A DNA stretch of 64,000 nt from an uncultured Acidobacteriota bacterium. Lineage in GTDB: Bacteria > Acidobacteriota > Thermoanaerobaculia > Gp7-AA8. The stretch lies in NCBI GenBank assembly GCA_963741955.1, contig CAVUKB010000010.1, forward strand, positions 288,001 to 352,000, in the 5' to 3' direction. The notes beneath the pieces are model-generated. The model had not been told where the DNA came from, ran no database searches, and saw only the letters and a list, made by a program, of their open reading frames with translations. Within the stretch, counting starts at the first letter, position 1. The number at the start of each line of letters is the position of its first letter. A program made the position numbers and the translations under genes. This document shows positions 12,511 through 19,737 of this stretch, in pieces.

Positions 12511-13383
12511 ATGAAAAAGCTTCTGTCTCTGCTGTTCGTCGCCGCGCTGGCGGCTCCGGTTTTTGCTCAGAGCGCTCCTGAGCTCAACACGTCGAATTCG
12601 CACGCGAAGAAGTTCTACATGCGCGGATACGCGAGGCCGGGTGGAGGTGGATCGGCGAATCTGGTCTACCACTCGGGTGGAACGGTCATCCGGAGTGCTC
12701 ACGTGGTCTACATCTTCTGGGGGCCGAGCTTCCAGGGCTCCGACTCCGGGTACGCCGGAGAGCTGCAGAACTTCCGCGATCAGTTCGGAACCACCAAGGA
12801 GTACAACACCGTCACCCAGTACTACGGCGAGGATCCGGTGAGCGGCTACGGCAACATCGGTACGACGAACCTCAAGGGACAGGCCGACTGGTTCGACGCC
12901 AGCAATCCCCCGGTCCCCGTCACCGACAGCGACGTTCAGAACGAGGTGAAGGCGTACGTGGCGCGGTTCGGTGTCGACTACAATACGGTCTACGAGGTGG
13001 TTCTCCCGAGCAGCACCTTCTCCGCGGACGGCCATTCCGGTTCGTGCGGCGCCACTCATCCTTACCGGCTTGCATACTGCGCCTACCACAGCCACTACAG
13101 CGACTCCAGCGGTAACAACGTGAAGTACTCCATCGAGCCGTTTCCGAGCTGCAGTGGTTGCTCCGTCTCCGGCTGGACCGCAGCTCAGAACCAGGAGCAC
13201 TTCATCACTCACGAGACCCGCGAAGCAGTGACCGACGCCCTCGGCAATGCCTGGTTCGACAGCCAGGGATACGAAGCCGACGACAAGTGCGCGTGGAGCC
13301 CCTCCCCCTTCATCGGCACCGGTGGATACGGGTACCAGTACGAGTGGTCCAACGCCGACAGCGGTTGCGTCAAGACCAAGTAA
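12511..13383 (+). CDS. Secreted protein, bacterial Phi-1/EXORDIUM-like family (possible HE-type metal site)
   Basis: Signal peptide ending VFA. LVYHSGGTVI, YCAYHS, HETREAVTD...WFD..GYEADDKC motifs. Confidence 0.7.
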   Translation: MKKLLSLLFVAALAAPVFAQSAPELNTSNSHAKKFYMRGYARPGGGGSANLVYHSGGTVIRSAHVVYIFWGPSFQGSDSGYAGELQNFRDQFGTTKEYNTVTQYYGEDPVSGYGNIGTTNLKGQADWFDASNPPVPVTDSDVQNEVKAYVARFGVDYNTVYEVVLPSSTFSADGHSGSCGATHPYRLAYCAYHSHYSDSSGNNVKYSIEPFPSCSGCSVSGWTAAQNQEHFITHETREAVTDALGNAWFDSQGYEADDKCAWSPSPFIGTGGYGYQYEWSNADSGCVKTK

Positions 13384-13406
13384 GCGTTCGCGAACCGAAA
13401 CGGGCG

Positions 13407-13439
13407 CGAGCCCCGGAGGCCCTCGGGTTCCGGGGCTCG
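13407..13439 (+). terminator. GC-rich hairpin after the stop codon (possible terminator, no U-tract)
   Basis: CGAGCCCCGGA...TCCGGGGCTCG. Confidence 0.45.
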
Positions 13440-13450
13440 ACTCGTCTCTG

Positions 13451-14812
13451 GAGCGCATCGAGACGATGGCTCTGGCAGAAGCGGAGCCGTTCATCACACT
13501 CTCCTCGGCGCAAAAGCCCAAAGTGAGGTGAAGAGGGGTGCGGATCCTCCGATCCGCCGCGTGACCCGTGTTCAGAGCGCATCGGGGCGATGCCTTTGGC
13601 AGAAGCGGAGCCACTCCTCGGGCGCTCCTGAGGCGCAAAGCGCAAAGTGAAGTGAAGAGGGGTGCGGATCCTCCGATCCGCCGCGTGACCCGCGTTCAGA
13701 GCGCATCGAGACGATGTCTTTGGCAGAAGCGGAGCCGTTCATCGCGCTCCGTGGCCCAAAGCGCGAAGTGAAGTGAAGAGGGGTGCGGATCCTCCGATCC
13801 GCCGCGTGAACCGCGTTCAGGGCGCATCGAGACGATGCCCCTGGCAGAAGCAGAGCGACTCCTCGCTCTCTCCTGAGGCGCAAAGCGCAAAGTGAAGTGA
13901 AGAGGGGTGCGGATCCTCCGATCCGCCGCGTGACCCGTGTTCAGGGCGCATCGGGGCGATGCCTTTGGCAGAAGCAGAGCGACTCCTCGCTCTCTCCTGA
14001 GGCGCAAAGCGCAAAGTGAAGTGAAGAGGGGTGCGGATCCTCCGATCCGCCGCGTGAACCGCGTTCAGGGCGCATCGGGGCGATGCCCCTGGCAGAAGCA
14101 GAGCGACTCCTCGCTCTCTCCTGAGGCGCAAAGCGCAAAGTGAAGTGAAGAGGGGTGCGGATCCTCCGATCCGCCGCGAAAATCGTGTTCAGAGCGCATC
14201 GGGGCGATGCCCTTGGCAGAAGCGGAGCCACTCCTAGGGTGACAGAAGCGAAGCCACTCCTCGCACGAATCGATCCTGTGACGAACGCTTCGCGCGTAAT
14301 CAGAGCACCGGGTAACCTCGGCTTCGAGACGATCTGCGCGGCGGATCAGAGGATCCGCACCTCTCGGCGTGATTGACGAAAATCGTGTTCAGAGCGCATC
14401 GGGGCGATGCCCTTGGCAGAAGCGGAGCCACTCCTCGGGTGACAGAAGCGAAGCCGCTCCTCGCGCGAATCGATCCTGTGACGAACGCTTCGCGCGTAAT
14501 CACGGCACCGGCTAGCCTCGGCTTCGAGACGATCTGCGCGGCGGATCAGAGGATCCGCACTCCTCGGCGTGATTGACGTGATCCGCGTTCAGCGCGCATC
14601 GGGGCGATGCCTGTGGCAGAAGCAGAGCCACTCCGCGGGTGACGGAAGCGAAGCCACTCCTCGCACGAATCGATCCTGTGACGAACGCTTCGCGCGTAAT
14701 CACGGCACCGGCTAACCTCGGCTCCGAGACGATCTGCGCGGCGGATGGATCCGCACCCCTCGGCGTGATTGACGTGAATCGCGTTCAGGGCGCTACCGAT
14801 GCCTCTGGGAGA
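13451..14812. repeat. REP/BIME-like array: six ~124-bp units with forward GGGGTGCGGATCCTCCGATCCGCCGCG, then three 200-bp units with the inverted motif
   Basis: Forward motifs at 13535, 13659, 13780, 13904, 14028 and 14152. Inverted motifs at 14337, 14537 and 14737 (the last has a small deletion). Confidence 0.92.
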
Positions 14813-14814
14813 AG

Positions 14815-15756
14815 CTACGTCCCGTCCTCGGGAAGTACCACATGAAACGTCGTCCCTTCCGCCACACGGCTCTCGACGATGATCTCCCCTCCGTGCCGGG
14901 TCACGATCTGGTGGACGACCGCGAGACCGAGTCCGGTGCCGGACCGCTTGGTCGTGAAGAGCGGCTCGAAGATGCGGGCGAGGTCGCCGGGCTCGATTCC
15001 GAATCCCTGGTCGCGCACCTCCAGGTGCACGAGCTCGTGGGAACGGATCATCAGCCGTTTCGAGACCCAGCGACTGCGAACGCCGGAATGGCACGCCAGG
15101 GTGATCTCTCCGCCCGAGGGCATCGCGTCCTGAGCGTTCAGGATCAGATTCGCGACCACCTGGTGAAGCTGATGCCCGTCGAGTCGCGCCGTGACTTCCT
15201 CCGACCCCGCGTCGATGACGAGGCGGACCCCCTTTCGGAGCCGCGGCCGCATCTCTTCGGTGATCTCCCGCAGGAATTCGCGTATCGCGATCTTCTCGCG
15301 CTGGAGCGGAGCAGGACGCGCGAAGCGGAGAATCTCTCCGGAGATCACCGCTCCTCGATCGAGTGCACGCTCGATCTGCGAGATCGCGCGTTCGAGGGTC
15401 GGGTCTGCATCACAGCGGCGACGGAGGACCTCGACGAACGGCTGGCAGGACATCAGGGTGTTGTTGAACTCGTGGGTGATGGTCGCGGCAAGCGTTCCCA
15501 GGAGCTTCATCCGCTCGTCGCGCTGAACCGTTTCTTCCATGATCCGCGAACGTTCCGCGAAGCGCCGGATCAGGCGGTCGAGGAGTAGGGCGGTGATGGC
15601 GATGAAGAGCCACCCCTTGTACGTCTCGACCAGGAGAAACGTGTGGGCATCGGGGGAGATCCAGCGGGCGGCGGAGTCCGAAAGAAGAATCCAGAGGGCG
15701 CCGAATGCGACGTAAACGACCGCGATCCGCCGGGGAGACTGGAGGACCCTGGTCAT
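14815..15756 (-). CDS. Membrane sensor histidine kinase (2 TM, HisKA, HATPase)
   Basis: [39 protein letters not shown] 15756 (MTRVLQ) chosen over the ORF start. Confidence 0.88.
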   Translation of the reverse strand: MTRVLQSPRRIAVVYVAFGALWILLSDSAARWISPDAHTFLLVETYKGWLFIAITALLLDRLIRRFAERSRIMEETVQRDERMKLLGTLAATITHEFNNTLMSCQPFVEVLRRRCDADPTLERAISQIERALDRGAVISGEILRFARPAPLQREKIAIREFLREITEEMRPRLRKGVRLVIDAGSEEVTARLDGHQLHQVVANLILNAQDAMPSGGEITLACHSGVRSRWVSKRLMIRSHELVHLEVRDQGFGIEPGDLARIFEPLFTTKRSGTGLGLAVVHQIVTRHGGEIIVESRVAEGTTFHVVLPEDGT

Positions 15757-15856
15757 ACTCCGGCCCGGCCCGCCGGCCCCCTCCACCCCGCGAGCGGGCG
15801 TGACGGCAACCGGGTTGCGGCTGCCGCCACGTGCTCGAGCCGGCACGGAGGCCGGC

Positions 15857-16084
15857 TTACGGGATCGGAACCGCAATCACATCGCCGCAGATCCGGAGGA
15901 CGGTCACGACCGTCTGCAGGGCGTGCGGCAGCCACGCGCCGATGCCGGGTGCGAATGAGGACGCTCCATCCTGCATCGGCTCCATGATCCGGGCCGCAGC
16001 GAACGTCGCCGGGGTGAGTACGAAGAGATAGAGACTGATCAGCCACGCGAAGACCGTAGTCGACGATTTGAATACACGCTTCAT
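15857..16084 (-). CDS. 75-aa secreted pro-peptide-like protein, C-terminus GDVIAVPIP
   Basis: AAGGAGGG RBS. MKRVFK n-region, hydrophobic h-region, TFA/AAA signal peptidase site, amphipathic helix and Pro-rich tail. Confidence 0.75.
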   Translation of the reverse strand: MKRVFKSSTTVFAWLISLYLFVLTPATFAAARIMEPMQDGASSFAPGIGAWLPHALQTVVTVLRICGDVIAVPIP

Positions 16085-16140
16085 GATTCCCTCCTTCTGT
16101 CCGGCTTCTGGCCGGCGGTTGGGAGGGCGCCCTCAACAGG

Positions 16141-16182
16141 GGAGTTCCTTCAGGAAGGCATTTCGGTACCCAGGGTATGAAA
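16141..16182 (-). promoter_or_regulatory. Putative ECF-type promoter motif upstream of the pro-peptide gene
   Basis: TTTCATACCCTGGGTACCGAAATGCCTTCCTGAAGGAACTCC is 30/42 identical, ungapped, to 18150..18191 on the + strand. Confidence 0.55.
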
Positions 16183-16320
16183 AAAAGTTTTTCGACCGCC
16201 TGGCCTCGGCGGCAGCGGCCGGCCAGAAAGGGCGGAAGGGGGCGGGATGGAGTGGACGAGAAGGGGGGAGCGGTCAGCCCCTGTTCGGAGCTGCAGTGAA
16301 GGTTCAGCGCGGACTTTCAG

Positions 16321-17574
16321 CTAGACGCGGGCCCAGAGACGCTGAGGCTCGTGGTGGAGATGGCTCAGGTCGATCCGGACCTTCTCGACGATCTCGTGGG
16401 AGACCGTCTTGGCGGCGACGGCGTCCCGGAGGAACGCCAGGGCCGCGATGGCCCGGTTGTTCATCCCCGCGGCGGTGAACGTCTCGACGAGTGCGGACGC
16501 GAGTCGCTCCGCTTCGTTCCAGCGGGCAGTGGCGAGGCAGGCTTCGACGATATCGAGCCCGCAGAGGCCGGCTTCCTCGAGCATCCCCGCTTCTTCGAGC
16601 GACTGGCGCACCAGGCCGAGCGAGCCGATCGCGAGCTCGTAATCATTCCGGCGGAGATAGAGCTGCGCGAGTCCCCACCGCGCGCGAAGTTTGTCGGTCA
16701 GATTGCCAGCCTCATCGTATGCCGAGATGGCTCGGACGAAGAGTGACGCGGCCTCGCCGAACTTCCCGATTTCAGCGCTGCACTGGGCGAGATTGCTCAG
16801 AAGGATTCCGACGTGCGCGAGGTCGGGCTCAGTTTCCGCGGCCTCCAGCAATCCCATCCACGTTTGTTGTGCTTTTCCCATGTCGCCGCGCCGGAATGCG
16901 ATGGCGCCCCGGAACATCGCGGCTTCCGTGGCTCGCTTCCGGTCGCCGTAGCGCTGAAAAACGTTCTCGGCCTCGTCGAGGAGTCGCTCCGCCTGGTCGA
17001 GCCGGTCGATCTCCCGAAGAACCACCGCGCGGGCGAAGGCGATGACCGCGAGCCCGTAGTCGCTGGTCACCGTCTCCTCGTAGTACGTCTCTGCGCAATC
17101 GAGCGCGTCGAGCGCGTCGGAGTAGCGGGCGAGGAAACGGAAGGCATGGGACCGGAGTTTCCACGTTTCACCGCGCAACTCGAGCCGGACCAGGTCCGGT
17201 TCACCTTCCGGGAGGTGCTGGATCAGATCGAGTGCGATCTCGGTCTGCCGGAGCGACTCGGATGGAGATTCAGTGAGATTGCGCCGGATCTCGGCGAGGA
17301 GTCCGCGGACGAGTCCCACGCTGCTCCGGTCGCGGTCGAAACGTTCCGGATGCCTCAGCAGATCGCTGAGTGCGACGCGGGCCTCACTCTCTTCCGGGTC
17401 GATCTTCGCCGTGAAACGGGTGAACGCCTCCTGCAGCGCAGCCCTGCGTCGCGCGGTCTGCACCCGCTCCCGGCACGGATCGCACCACTCGACATGCTCG
17501 GGCAGATCCCGGTGGGGAGCCGTCTCCAATCCGTCCAGGATCTCCACGTCGCTGAGATGTTCGATTGTCGTCAT
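16321..17574 (-). CDS. Soluble TPR-repeat protein with N-terminal Zn-finger anti-sigma (ZAS) motif
   Basis: EHLSD...EHVEWCDPC fits H-xn-HxxxCxxC, followed by multiple TPR-like helical repeats. No TM segment or signal. Directly downstream of the ECF gene. Alternative start 17592. Confidence 0.82.
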   Translation of the reverse strand: MTTIEHLSDVEILDGLETAPHRDLPEHVEWCDPCRERVQTARRRAALQEAFTRFTAKIDPEESEARVALSDLLRHPERFDRDRSSVGLVRGLLAEIRRNLTESPSESLRQTEIALDLIQHLPEGEPDLVRLELRGETWKLRSHAFRFLARYSDALDALDCAETYYEETVTSDYGLAVIAFARAVVLREIDRLDQAERLLDEAENVFQRYGDRKRATEAAMFRGAIAFRRGDMGKAQQTWMGLLEAAETEPDLAHVGILLSNLAQCSAEIGKFGEAASLFVRAISAYDEAGNLTDKLRARWGLAQLYLRRNDYELAIGSLGLVRQSLEEAGMLEEAGLCGLDIVEACLATARWNEAERLASALVETFTAAGMNNRAIAALAFLRDAVAAKTVSHEIVEKVRIDLSHLHHEPQRLWARV

Positions 17575-17581
17575 TGTCGTT

Positions 17582-18076
17582 TCACCCGCCATGTGCCCGC
17601 TGCAATCCGATCCGCACCAATTTCTTGGCGTAGCCCGGAGTCGTCCCGAGAACCTGTGCGATCTCCTCTATCGTACATCCTTCGAGATAGTGGAGACGAA
17701 GGGCTTCTCCGTACTTTCCGCTGGCCTGATCCAGCGCTTCGCGTACGGCGACCCGGTTGTCGAGCACGTCCGCGGAAACCGGACACGGCATCTCCTGGTA
17801 ATCTTCAGGAAGCGTCTCGAGCCGGCCCTGGGAGCGCCAGTACTTTCGACTCGCGTTGCACGCCGCACCGATCAGCCACGCTCGAGCGTCACCGATCTCG
17901 CCGACGGACATCGCATACGACATCAGGACTTCCTGGACCAGGACCTCGGCGTCCATGGTCGGAATCCGGAACTTCCGTTCACAGACCGCGACCAGTGCAT
18001 CGAAGTACTCGAGATACACCGATTCCCAAAGGTCTTCTCGGCTCGCCGATTCGGGGAGTGTCGTTACCGTCGCCAT
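17582..18076 (-). CDS. ECF sigma-70 family factor
   Basis: Region 2: DAEVLVQEV...RAWLIGAACNASRKYWR. Region 4: LRLHYLEGCTIEEIAQVLGTT. Confidence 0.88.
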   Translation of the reverse strand: MATVTTLPESASREDLWESVYLEYFDALVAVCERKFRIPTMDAEVLVQEVLMSYAMSVGEIGDARAWLIGAACNASRKYWRSQGRLETLPEDYQEMPCPVSADVLDNRVAVREALDQASGKYGEALRLHYLEGCTIEEIAQVLGTTPGYAKKLVRIGLQRAHGG

Positions 18077-18149
18077 GCATCTCGTCCGGGTCTGCTTTGG
18101 CAGAGCTTAGCACTCCCGGTCTACTGCCGTAATTCTTTCCCGAAACGAA

Positions 18150-18191
18150 TTTGATACGCAGGGTGCTGTTTTGCCTCGCTGGTGGAACTCC
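18150..18191 (+). promoter_or_regulatory. Second copy of the putative ECF promoter motif, upstream of the divergent small gene
   Basis: TTTGATACGCAGGGTGCTGTTTTGCCTCGCTGGTGGAACTCC, ending 30 bp before GTG 18222. Confidence 0.55.
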
Positions 18192-18221
18192 TAGACAGAA
18201 GGGTTTGGAATCGGAGACATC

Positions 18222-18548
18222 GTGAGAGGACAGAAACGAACCAACGACGGGTGGTCGGTCCGTGACCGGCAAAGGCAGCGGCCGGAGAGTCGCAACCGGG
18301 CTGGTCCGGAACGTCGCGACTTCGACCAGAGTCTCCGGAACCTGCTGCGCTTCCACGTACTCATCCACGTGTTCGGCGGCGACGCGCGGAAATGGCTGGA
18401 GTATCTGGAGAGCCGCGGAACCCTGCGCCAGCGGAGGGACGACGTTCCCTTCGTCCGCGTCCTCTGCCATCAGATCGAGCGGAACCCGGGGGTTCTCGAT
18501 GGAATCCGGCTGGTCGTCGCGAACACCGTCCCCCCGGCCGCCGGGTGA
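18222..18548 (+). CDS. Hypothetical 108-aa protein divergent from the ECF sigma
   Basis: GGAGA RBS and GTG start. Ordered-looking core NLLRFHVLIHVFGGDARKWLEYLE. Confidence 0.65.
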   Translation: MRGQKRTNDGWSVRDRQRQRPESRNRAGPERRDFDQSLRNLLRFHVLIHVFGGDARKWLEYLESRGTLRQRRDDVPFVRVLCHQIERNPGVLDGIRLVVANTVPPAAG

Positions 18549-18666
18549 GAGAGGAGAAGACTTCCGCAATCCGACGACTCTCGCAAATCGTTTCTTCTCC
18601 TCCCTCACGATAGAATCCTCCGGCGCCGGCCGGTTGGCCCGGCCGATCCGTTCGTAAGGAGATCCG

Positions 18667-19737
18667 ATGTCCGAAAGCGCCCCCGCGTGGAAACTCCAGT
18701 TCGCAAGCGACAACACCGCACCGATCTCACCCGAAGCGCTCGACGCGCTGTACCGCGCCAATGAGGAACCGCGTTTCACTCTCGGTTACGGCGATGATCC
18801 GGTCACCCGCAAAGCCGTGAGTCTGATCCGCGATCTCTTCGAGACGGATTGCGAGGTCTTCTTCGTCTTCAACGGTTCCGCCGCGAACTCGCTCGCGCTC
18901 GCGTCGATCTGCAGCTCGTACCACGGAGCTCTCTGTCATCCCTTCTCGCATGCGGATACGGACGAAGCGAACATGCCGGAGTTCTTCACCGGAGGGGCGA
19001 AACTGATCCACGTGGACGGTCCTGCCGGAAAGATCGATCCCGCGAAAATTCCTCCGATGCTGGAGCGCGGCCATGGAATCCACTCCGCGAAGATCCGCGC
19101 GGTGACGCTCACCCAGGCGACGGAAGTCGCGGCAGTGTACACGCCCGAGGAGATCCGAGCGGTGACCGCGGTGCGGAACGTGAAGGGATGCGAAGACTTC
19201 CGCTTCCACATGGACGGCGCGCGCTTCGCGAATGCACTCGCGTTCCTCGGCGACGGCGTGACGCCCGCCGATCTGAGCTGGAAAGCGGGGATCGATGTCC
19301 TCTCTTTCGGTGGTGCGAAGAACGGACTTCCCGCGACCGAGGCGCTGCTCTTCTTCGACCGCGACCTCGCACGCGATTTCGAGTGGAGGCGGAAGCAGAG
19401 TGGCCAGCTCTCGTCGAAGATGCGCTATCAGGCCGCGCCGTGGATCGGGGTGATCGAGAGCGGTGCCTGGCTCGAGAACGCGAAACGGGCAAACGCGTGC
19501 GCGAAGAAACTCGGCGACGCGCTGGCGGCGCTTCCCGGAGTCGAGCTGCGCTTCCCGGTGGAGGCGAACGGTGTCTTCGTCCGCATGCCGGAACGAGTCG
19601 TCGACGGTCTGTACGAGCGAGGATGGCATTTCTATCCCTTCAGCGTGGTCGGCGCGTGGAGGCTGATGTGCAACTGGGCGACGTCCGATGAAGCCGTGGA
19701 GGCATTCGTCGCAGACGTGAAAGAGCTGCTCGGCTGA
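18667..19737 (+). CDS. ltaE: Low-specificity L-threonine aldolase
   Basis: FASDN, YGDD, NGSAANSLAL, HMDGARFANA, SFGGAKNG (PLP lysine). Confidence 0.92.
   Translation: MSESAPAWKLQFASDNTAPISPEALDALYRANEEPRFTLGYGDDPVTRKAVSLIRDLFETDCEVFFVFNGSAANSLALASICSSYHGALCHPFSHADTDEANMPEFFTGGAKLIHVDGPAGKIDPAKIPPMLERGHGIHSAKIRAVTLTQATEVAAVYTPEEIRAVTAVRNVKGCEDFRFHMDGARFANALAFLGDGVTPADLSWKAGIDVLSFGGAKNGLPATEALLFFDRDLARDFEWRRKQSGQLSSKMRYQAAPWIGVIESGAWLENAKRANACAKKLGDALAALPGVELRFPVEANGVFVRMPERVVDGLYERGWHFYPFSVVGAWRLMCNWATSDEAVEAFVADVKELLG

Follow-up and report, generated by a model that had tools for sequence, protein, structure and literature searches.

A candidate peptide-signalling module of ECF sigma factor, zinc-motif TPR protein and putative exported pro-peptide in an uncultured Acidobacteriota bacterium

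Introduction

Could a short exported peptide be the ligand of a protein that keeps a sigma factor in check? The question is raised by a group of genes in a 64,000-nt stretch of DNA (hereafter the window: positions 288,001 to 352,000 of contig CAVUKB010000010.1, assembly GCA_963741955.1) from an uncultured bacterium of the Acidobacteriota, class Thermoanaerobaculia. Three of these genes follow one another on the minus strand: one for a 164-aa extracytoplasmic function (ECF)-type sigma factor (17582-18076), one for a 423-aa candidate anti-sigma factor with a zinc motif and tetratricopeptide repeats (TPR), the start of which overlaps the sigma stop (16321-17592), and, after a 236-nt gap, orf75 (15857-16084), which encodes a 75-aa pro-peptide candidate. 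The fourth, orf108 (18222-18548, plus strand), is divergent from the sigma gene and encodes a small cytoplasmic protein of 108 aa. A preliminary description, made from the letters of the sequence, had seen here an ECF sigma, a protein joining a zinc-binding anti-sigma (ZAS) finger to a TPR solenoid, and a secreted pro-peptide which, once re-imported, would bind the TPR and free the sigma for transcription of the peptide's own gene. On re-reading the sequence, we found the four open reading frames (ORFs) where they had been placed, together with the zinc motif and TPR repeats, the features of orf75 and the coding signal of orf108; the observation is confirmed.

The answer that we propose is as follows. 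The orf75 product would be a Sec-exported pro-peptide from a large, undescribed family of mini-proteins made of a signal peptide, a helix and a hydrophobic-Pro-x-Pro/Gly tail, and this family would be genetically tied to one family of cytoplasmic TPR sensors. The N-terminal zinc-motif anti-sigma domain of the sensor would hold the co-translated ECF sigma; binding of the peptide, chiefly by its tail, to the TPR superhelix would alter the grip of that domain on the sigma; and the freed sigma would act on a two-box promoter to transcribe orf75 and, probably, further genes that carry these boxes. By keeping the ribosome site paired, the orf75 leader would form a second gate on output. The genes themselves, the conservation of the gene set, the promoter-like motif and the folding of the leader are shown below, whereas we infer that the zinc domain binds the sigma, that the peptide is exported, re-enters the cytoplasm and binds the TPR, and which sign the feedback has. 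From the sequences, we put the chances at about even that the tail peptide is the ligand of a TPR sensor controlling sigma release and that the sigma transcribes the peptide gene.

Results

Signal-peptide mini-ORFs recur beside homologous TPR genes

The gene set was looked for in 60 loci from more than 20 genomes and in two loci of the genome to which the window belongs (hereafter the home genome), i.e. 62 loci, 530,813 bp and 71 TPR genes; two of the loci (L039 and L090, from the unpublished genome G022) both carry peptides and are included in all counts. The detector of small genes was set before any tail had been seen and called ORFs of 40-115 aa on the basis of a signal-peptide heuristic, a ribosome binding site (RBS) and a filter on third-position GC content (GC3). 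A signal-peptide mini-ORF was found at most 900 bp downstream of 39 of the 71 TPR genes. The home genome contains 302 such ORFs in 5.44 Mb (0.056/kb, or 0.052 per 940-bp window) and the remaining ~464 kb of the same loci contain 26; set against both backgrounds, 39/71 therefore represents an enrichment of ~10-fold. The preliminary description had proposed a search of homologous TPR loci for small conserved ORFs that combine a signal peptide with a Pro-rich tail, and the result is positive.

A Pro-x-Pro/Gly-type tail ends 36 of the 39 detected mini-ORFs, the genome background of the tail regex being 26 matches; the signal-peptide-only count is the clean statistic, because the tail regexes post-date inspection of the data. 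A tail-based collector placed peptides beside 46 of the 71 TPR genes (one false hit removed), and a relaxed stop-to-stop listing added five peptide-bearing TPR genes (46-51 in total), again with hydrophobic-Pro-x-Pro/Gly tails. False collector hits were dropped before counting (L037, 34 aa; L075, 80 aa; L067, L083, L089 and L093_5737). The peptide genes have a median length of 60 aa and lie at a median distance of 117 nt from the end of the TPR gene (range -3 to 608), 36 of them being co-oriented with it and 17 convergent. Tandem copies are found at four TPR genes, three with three copies and one with two.

In a wider sample taken from two other families of the class (19 loci), tail-like mini-ORFs accompany 5 of 21 TPR genes, and four of the five lack a signal peptide. 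At L113, L114, L115 and L119, from another family of the same class, a zinc-motif TPR gene is followed by 18-44-aa ORFs with a strong RBS and no signal peptide; three end in Pro-Ile-Gly-Gly/Pro and that of L115 in Pro-Ile-Asn. For these four loci phmmer found no sigma, though the upstream frame suggests a possible one.

Orf75 and its family

The ATG of orf75 is preceded at 5 nt by AAGGAGG, and GC content by codon position (0.58/0.49/0.79) is similar to that of the neighbouring genes. Residues 1-31 (15992-16084, minus strand) comprise a charged n-region (MKR..K), a 19-residue hydrophobic core and AAA before Arg32; judged by our own heuristic (positive n-region, hydrophobic core, small residues at -3 and -1), they have the makings of a Sec signal peptide. 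A hydrophobic middle part comes next, then the Pro-rich tail GDVIAVPIP (15860-15886, minus strand).

No sequence homologue of orf75 was found among 5.8 billion proteins. None of 25 tail peptides reached a curated cut-off of Pfam or NCBIfam, orf75 falling in no family, and the ESM Atlas gave nothing usable for orf75 or orf108. With the peptide family orf75 shares its architecture, tail, promoter motif and leader; in 41 aligned tail peptides the Pro at -3 is invariant. A second tail-like ORF of the home genome (C6:451515) was rejected, as it lies inside a longer ORF of the opposite strand and is without the motifs.

The TPR protein and its N-terminal motif

The 423-aa protein contains TPR_12 (Pfam, E 4.8e-15). 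Its start in the database gene call is Met7 (17574), as an alternative to the one used here. The sequence HVEWCDPC occupies residues 33-40 and the TPR superhelix begins at about residue 90. The H-x3-C-x2-C motif (17473-17496, minus strand) consists of His33, Cys37 and Cys40, invariant in 45 aligned family members, with His12 upstream conserved in at least 90% of them; going by sequence, this is the ligand pattern of zinc-binding anti-sigma domains. As for the position next to an ECF sigma gene that is expected of a ZAS protein, the two genes overlap, and a sigma homologue lies directly upstream of 55 of the 71 homologous TPR genes.

No signal peptide, hydrophobic segment or membrane segment is visible in the sequence of the TPR protein. 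The AlphaFold model is an all-helical superhelix of 19 helices (pLDDT 93.5, pTM 0.87), and its top Foldseek matches are peptide-binding TPRs: LGN/Pins, Rap, NprR and the C-degron receptor APPBP2 (RapF has a TM of 0.56 and rank 47). The family profile matches Rap J/I/F and NprR with E values of 1e-8 to 1e-12, LGN and designed TPRs scoring better. That the nearest folds are peptide-binding TPR superhelices, Rap and NprR among them, may be counted in favour of our proposal, and the modelled protein appears to have the TPR-type peptide-binding superhelix of a cytoplasmic RRNPP receptor. In place of an N-terminal helix-turn-helix (HTH) or Rap-type effector domain, however, it has the zinc-motif helical domain. 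It resembles an RRNPP receptor in design, and we call it RRNPP-like without assigning it to RRNPP.

The family is large. HMMER over 1.84 billion cluster representatives retrieved 2742 relatives at E<=0.001; the number falls to 806 at E<=1e-10 and to 126 at E<=1e-30, and identity nowhere exceeds 37%. Matches at E<=1e-10 are present in 28 of 41 related genomes (the home genome included), and 23 of the 24 genomes of the same taxonomic family are matched, a single genome holding as many as 14 copies. Across the phylum, 301 sampled genomes (the unpublished genome G030 included) gave full-length matches in the same class only; other classes gave partial TPR matches, within ORFs of ~950 aa. The home genome itself has a paralogous pair of sigma and zinc-motif TPR genes (C4:303511-305378, 34% identity), which is followed by a LuxR-type HTH gene and has neither peptide gene nor promoter motif.

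The tail peptide follows the TPR domain

When the 71 TPR genes are sorted by output architecture, a tail peptide is found at 27 of the 43 genes with both an upstream sigma and the zinc motif, at 6 of the 12 with an upstream sigma and no match to the zinc regex, at 4 of the 5 with the zinc motif and no sigma found, and at 9 of the 11 with neither. Across output architectures the tail peptide thus tracks the TPR domain and not the sigma.

Five TPR proteins of the last group (L070:6104-7537, L074:2932-4329, L082:5467-6846, L087:6091-7506 and L093:3629-5035) have a different N-terminal domain, probably an XRE-type HTH. Two of the five match Pfam HTH_31 (E 3e-4) and HTH_3, below cut-off; the best five matches of the profile in the PDB are all XRE-family regulators (E 0.055-0.4); and two close homologues are named 'transcriptional regulator with XRE-family HTH domain' by one source. 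Aligned by hhalign with one verified HTH_3 protein, the profile put the expected helices in register, with a probability of 1.2% that is not significant. Convergent with each of the five genes lies an ORF with a strong RBS that encodes 17-23 aa, including a Ser-hydrophobic-Pro-x-Gly/Pro tail and no signal peptide. A second sigma-TPR pair comes after each of these genes. By analogy, a putative HTH-TPR protein with a short tail peptide has the architecture of the Rgg/PlcR-type receptors. The likeness to RRNPP systems drawn in the preliminary description is strengthened by these relatives, but it does not extend to the output domain of the window protein. Three further relatives (L049:3986-5119, L062:771-1928 and L064:3395-4552) are TPR-only, i.e. 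without zinc motif, HTH or any sigma found, and each has a convergent tail peptide with a signal peptide.

Tail class (PxP or PxG) was mapped on a quick LG+G4 tree of the TPR proteins (70 rows, the split gene L069_4716 being left out). It requires 20 changes versus 31.9 in shuffles, none of 200 shuffles being as low. The TPR protein of the window belongs to the starred clade of 18 rows, 14 of which are PxP.

The sigma factor, the promoter-like motif and the leader

The sigma scores 36.3 bits for Sigma70_r4_2 (Pfam cut-off 25.7), 17.1 for Sigma70_r2 (below the cut-off of 24) and 42.2 for TIGR02937 (just below the cut-off of 42.9), and its closest solved relatives in a PDB profile search are the ECF factors SigH/SigE (E 2.5e-4). 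It has regions sigma-2 and sigma-4 only and a size within the ~160-200 aa of ECF (group 4) factors.

A two-box motif resembling ECF promoters lies ahead of orf75 (16141-16170, minus strand): a GGTA-type box, a spacer of ~14-16 nt and an AACTCC-type box, the latter being of the CACTCC type in the peptide loci as a group. The two-box regex has 36 matches in the 531 kb of loci versus 28 in the ten-fold larger home genome (5.44 Mb). Of the 36, 17 stand ahead of peptide genes, with 42-74 nt between their end and the peptide start (57 nt in the case of orf75), six lie before sigma genes, two before TPR genes and 11 elsewhere; the box variants of the window's TPR clade differ from those of other clades. 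Such a distribution is what would be expected of related ECF sigmas with related promoters. The proposal that the sigma transcribes the peptide gene has indirect support, in that a conserved ECF-like motif precedes 17 peptide genes, orf75 included, and six sigma genes; the evidence is of the motif kind. A promoter and terminator scan called no promoter of the sigma-70 type and placed no terminator in the interval from the TPR gene to orf75.

A few other observations concern the motif. Small stand-alone AraC-type HTH (HTH_18) genes lie directly behind it at C7:754279-754836, C6:355020-355483, C6:349219 and C9:89415-89854 in the home genome, and AraC-type genes also at L061:3286-3618 and L089:3184-3588; some appear to be leaderless. 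The boxes ahead of the AraC-type gene at C7:754279-754791 are almost identical to those of orf75, which makes this gene a candidate second target of the window sigma. At L039:3026-3054 and L040:2923-2952 the motif precedes a receiver-EAL gene that comes after the peptide gene and after a 158-aa ORF, conserved but without family assignment (syntenic in L034, L039 and L040). Directly upstream of the -35-like box, an A-run then a T-run are found in the window (16171-16195) and in L044, L047, L076, L077, L085 and L090; they could be an UP-like element or a terminator tail, the scan calling no terminator there.

Between the -10-like box and the RBS lies a perfect 12-bp palindrome, GAGGGCGCCCTC (16123-16134, minus strand), the 3' half of which is complementary to the Shine-Dalgarno (SD) sequence of orf75. 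The 12-mer occurs once in the home genome, and a GCGCCC-type palindrome core lies ahead of 32 of 49 peptide genes. In the orf75 leader (16085-16135, minus strand) a CCCTCC anti-SD pairs with the SD GGAGGG around a GC hairpin (16101-16115), and in 26 of 27 leaders the minimum-energy fold likewise pairs the SD around a variable GC hairpin. The folding z-score is -2.46 for the orf75 leader and -1.72 on average over 26 leaders, 12 of which are below -2. RNAalifold retained only an invariant 5-bp stem in the leaders, with no covariation support, and Rfam had no match in window positions 13000-19000.

Orf108 and other neighbours

Orf108 has a coding-like GC3 of 0.80. Homologues are present in 13 of the 26 genomes searched and, by tblastn, stand divergent upstream of the sigma gene in 9 of the 62 loci, mostly in the window's TPR clade (the home genome and locus being included in these counts). 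It is a recurrent fourth component of the module. It matched no Pfam or NCBIfam family, and its best PDB profile match, an Xre antitoxin (E 0.008), is not significant.

Directly downstream of orf75 is a gene for a histidine kinase (14815-15756, minus strand; HisKA, HATPase_c) with two predicted membrane helices, a short inter-helix loop in the style of intramembrane-sensing kinases and no adjacent response regulator. Several homologous modules likewise have genes for kinases, receivers or EAL proteins in their vicinity; such families are common, and we list the kinase as a neighbour of the module only. Farther on, at 12511-13383 (plus strand), is a gene for a 290-aa secreted protein of no Pfam family, which is found repeatedly close to modules of the TPR clade to which the window belongs. 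Its identity to a module-adjacent gene in L050 (4124-4987) is 64%, and it resembles L047:5802-6743. Between this gene and the kinase gene are two adjoining tandem arrays (13451-14793; 124 bp x 6.4 copies and 200 bp x 3.1 copies, with 90-92% matches), the units of which hold CCACTCC, like the -10-like box. Elsewhere in the home genome are four genes for OppA-type binding proteins (SBP_bac_5), which make peptide import possible and show no more than that.

Discussion

Does the tail peptide signal through the TPR protein?

Several of our observations weigh against the proposal that the tail peptide is a ligand and its gene a target of the sigma. First, the tail is conserved across paralogues within a genome, which would be less expected of a specificity determinant than of a motif for docking or processing. 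Second, about 20 of the 71 TPR genes have no detectable peptide, the second module of the home genome (contig C4) being one of them. Third, a mature peptide of 30-45 aa would be a large cargo to bring in through two membranes. The strict two-box regex is matched by only 17 of 53 peptide genes, and the motif is also found ahead of unrelated small AraC-type HTH genes in the home genome. The tail regexes, as already said, were composed after the data had been seen. Receptor-peptide co-variation, for which the preliminary description had proposed to look, is seen to the extent that tail class follows the TPR tree, and co-inheritance alone could give this. The ZAS zinc finger of that description is backed by the conserved H-x3-C-x2-C motif and His12 and not by profiles: there is no match to Pfam zf-HC2, either in residues 1-95 (for which no Pfam family at all was found at E<=10) or in a scan of the whole protein. 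A simple pherotype-style ligand thus agrees poorly with the paralogue-conserved tail and the peptide-less TPR genes. The earlier interpretation as a whole is partly supported: recurrence of the gene set, the promoter-like motif and the HTH-TPR relatives speak for it, conservation of the tail and TPR genes without a peptide against it.

Four other explanations can be put forward. The peptide could be an output, that is, a sigma-dependent secreted effector (antimicrobial or membrane-active), the TPR anti-sigma then sensing another signal; we regard this as unlikely. Many members of the family do carry a cationic amphipathic helix, and a sigma-type promoter motif ahead of the peptide genes would suit an effector. 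In one clade (~9 loci: L065, L068, L075, L076, L078, L079, L081, L085 and L086), a divergent M20 peptidase gene is followed by sigma, TPR and peptide genes and by genes for a DrrA-type ABC ATPase and an ABC-2 permease, an arrangement like that of bacteriocin immunity or export; these ABC genes could fit an effector with its immunity or, just as well, a peptide exporter. However, this synteny represents a single orthologous locus and no independent cases. Peptides are also found beside TPR relatives that have no sigma, and the shortest versions (17-23 aa) retain only the hydrophobic stretch and the tail. As to orf75, its predicted mature peptide has, by count from the sequence, a net charge of about -1 and is not cationic, and no transporter gene adjoins orf75 in the window, so that, unlike members of that clade, it does not have the features of a bacteriocin with ABC immunity or export.

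Rather improbable, in our opinion, is an action of the peptide inside the producing cell with neither export nor re-import, in which the precursor, or a form anchored in the membrane, would use its tail to dock onto the TPR and serve as an anti-anti-sigma or as a sensor of the state of secretion or of the membrane. Such a role would account for the signal-less variants beside HTH-TPR and zinc-motif TPR genes, and a conserved extreme C-terminus suits recognition of a free C-terminus by a TPR, the model resembling APPBP2. But most members of the family have a canonical signal peptide with an AxA site, and a protein with its N-terminus inside would have its tail outside the cytoplasm. The signal-less short hydrophobic peptides of Rgg systems, moreover, are exported nevertheless.

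We give only a small chance to a link that is purely regulatory, where the peptides would be small envelope proteins and the nearest members of the regulon, without any contact between TPR and peptide, and where the palindrome would be the operator of another regulator, e.g. orf108 or an AraC-type protein. The operator-like position of the palindrome between -10-like box and RBS, the promoter motif shared by small AraC-type genes and the recurrence of orf108 agree with such an explanation. It leaves without a cause, however, the one invariant feature, which is the tail, and the persistence of the peptide with the TPR across three output architectures. Finally, that orf75 is a chance ORF is hardly credible and already contradicted: although it has no homologue and spurious ORFs are frequent at 64% GC, it has a strong RBS, a coding-type GC3 and a ~10-fold enrichment over background behind it, and its design, including promoter, palindrome and leader, is common to ~50 loci.

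If the tail peptide is indeed the ligand, the Thermoanaerobaculia-type Acidobacteriota might possess a large superfamily of cytoplasmic TPR peptide receptors, each with its own tail peptide, exported or short and hydrophobic. Their output heads would be swappable, some receptors having an anti-sigma domain from which an ECF sigma is released, others an XRE-type HTH and others no head at all. That this is true peptide quorum sensing between cells we hold to be possible but doubtful; it would be either an ancient sister of RRNPP or a convergent reinvention. Receptors that sense peptide pheromones in the cytoplasm are held to be peculiar to Gram-positive bacteria, and pairs of ECF sigma and anti-sigma to be sensors of stress. 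A receptor joining both would give a new class of input to the most abundant family of alternative sigma factors, would be the first pheromone receptor that is itself an anti-sigma factor, in a diderm phylum at that, and would carry RRNPP-like signalling into a soil phylum that has been little studied and is for the most part uncultured. The hypothesis is directly testable in E. coli, because the family is large and modular and the candidate ligands are short and can be synthesised, and orthogonal triads of sigma, anti-sigma and peptide could serve as switches in synthetic biology.

Comparison with known systems

In the Sigma-E/RseA/DegS pathway, a periplasmic PDZ protease reads the C-termini of outer-membrane proteins and the anti-sigma spans the membrane. 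There as here, release of an ECF sigma would be triggered by a conserved peptide motif at a C-terminus; the sensor, in contrast, would here be a cytoplasmic TPR protein and the peptide has a gene dedicated to it. RsrA and ChrR are cytoplasmic zinc-binding anti-sigmas (class I anti-sigma domain) that, like the TPR protein of the window, are soluble, have H-x3-C-x2-C and an upstream His and are encoded by genes overlapping that of their ECF sigma; here, a 330-aa TPR superhelix follows the zinc domain and zf-HC2 is unmatched. What RsrA and ChrR sense, by way of the zinc site or of a cupin domain, is redox state or singlet oxygen (see PMC6432622).

TPR domains are known to regulate ECF sigmas in the ECF42 group, the members of which carry the TPR as a C-terminal extension of the sigma itself and have no anti-sigma factors (PMC7826278); the TPR considered here is on a separate candidate anti-sigma protein accompanied by a peptide gene. 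In the streptococcal ComR-ComS (XIP) system (bioRxiv 10.1101/265223), a peptide pheromone sensed in the cytoplasm ends in activity of the sigma ComX. There, an HTH-TPR activator transcribes the sigma gene, whereas the receptor here would sequester the sigma protein itself. The portions covered of the literature (PMC7826278, PMC7406223 and the RRNPP papers cited below among others) describe no zinc-motif TPR anti-sigma with a peptide gene and no RRNPP-like system in Acidobacteriota; ECF group tables in the supplements might list the group of the sigma.

The nearest parallel is offered by the RRNPP/RRNPPA systems (Rap-Phr, NprR-NprX, PlcR-PapR, Rgg-SHP and AimR-AimP), which are treated as belonging to Bacillota and their mobile elements in the parts seen of PMC10075063, PMC9765709 and PMC12700828, where nothing was found on other phyla. 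Common to them and to the module are a cytoplasmic TPR-type receptor with an adjacent small ORF conserved in its C-terminal part, many diversified paralogous pairs per genome, both Sec-type and signal-less peptides, and N-terminal outputs that can be swapped. The differences are that the output here is a zinc-motif anti-sigma domain with an ECF sigma and not an HTH or Rap-type domain, that the host is a diderm Acidobacteriota bacterium, that the TPR likeness is generic and that the tail is conserved across paralogues. Relative to RRNPP-like signalling, we rate as new the design of a receptor and pro-peptide with an anti-sigma output in a diderm phylum.

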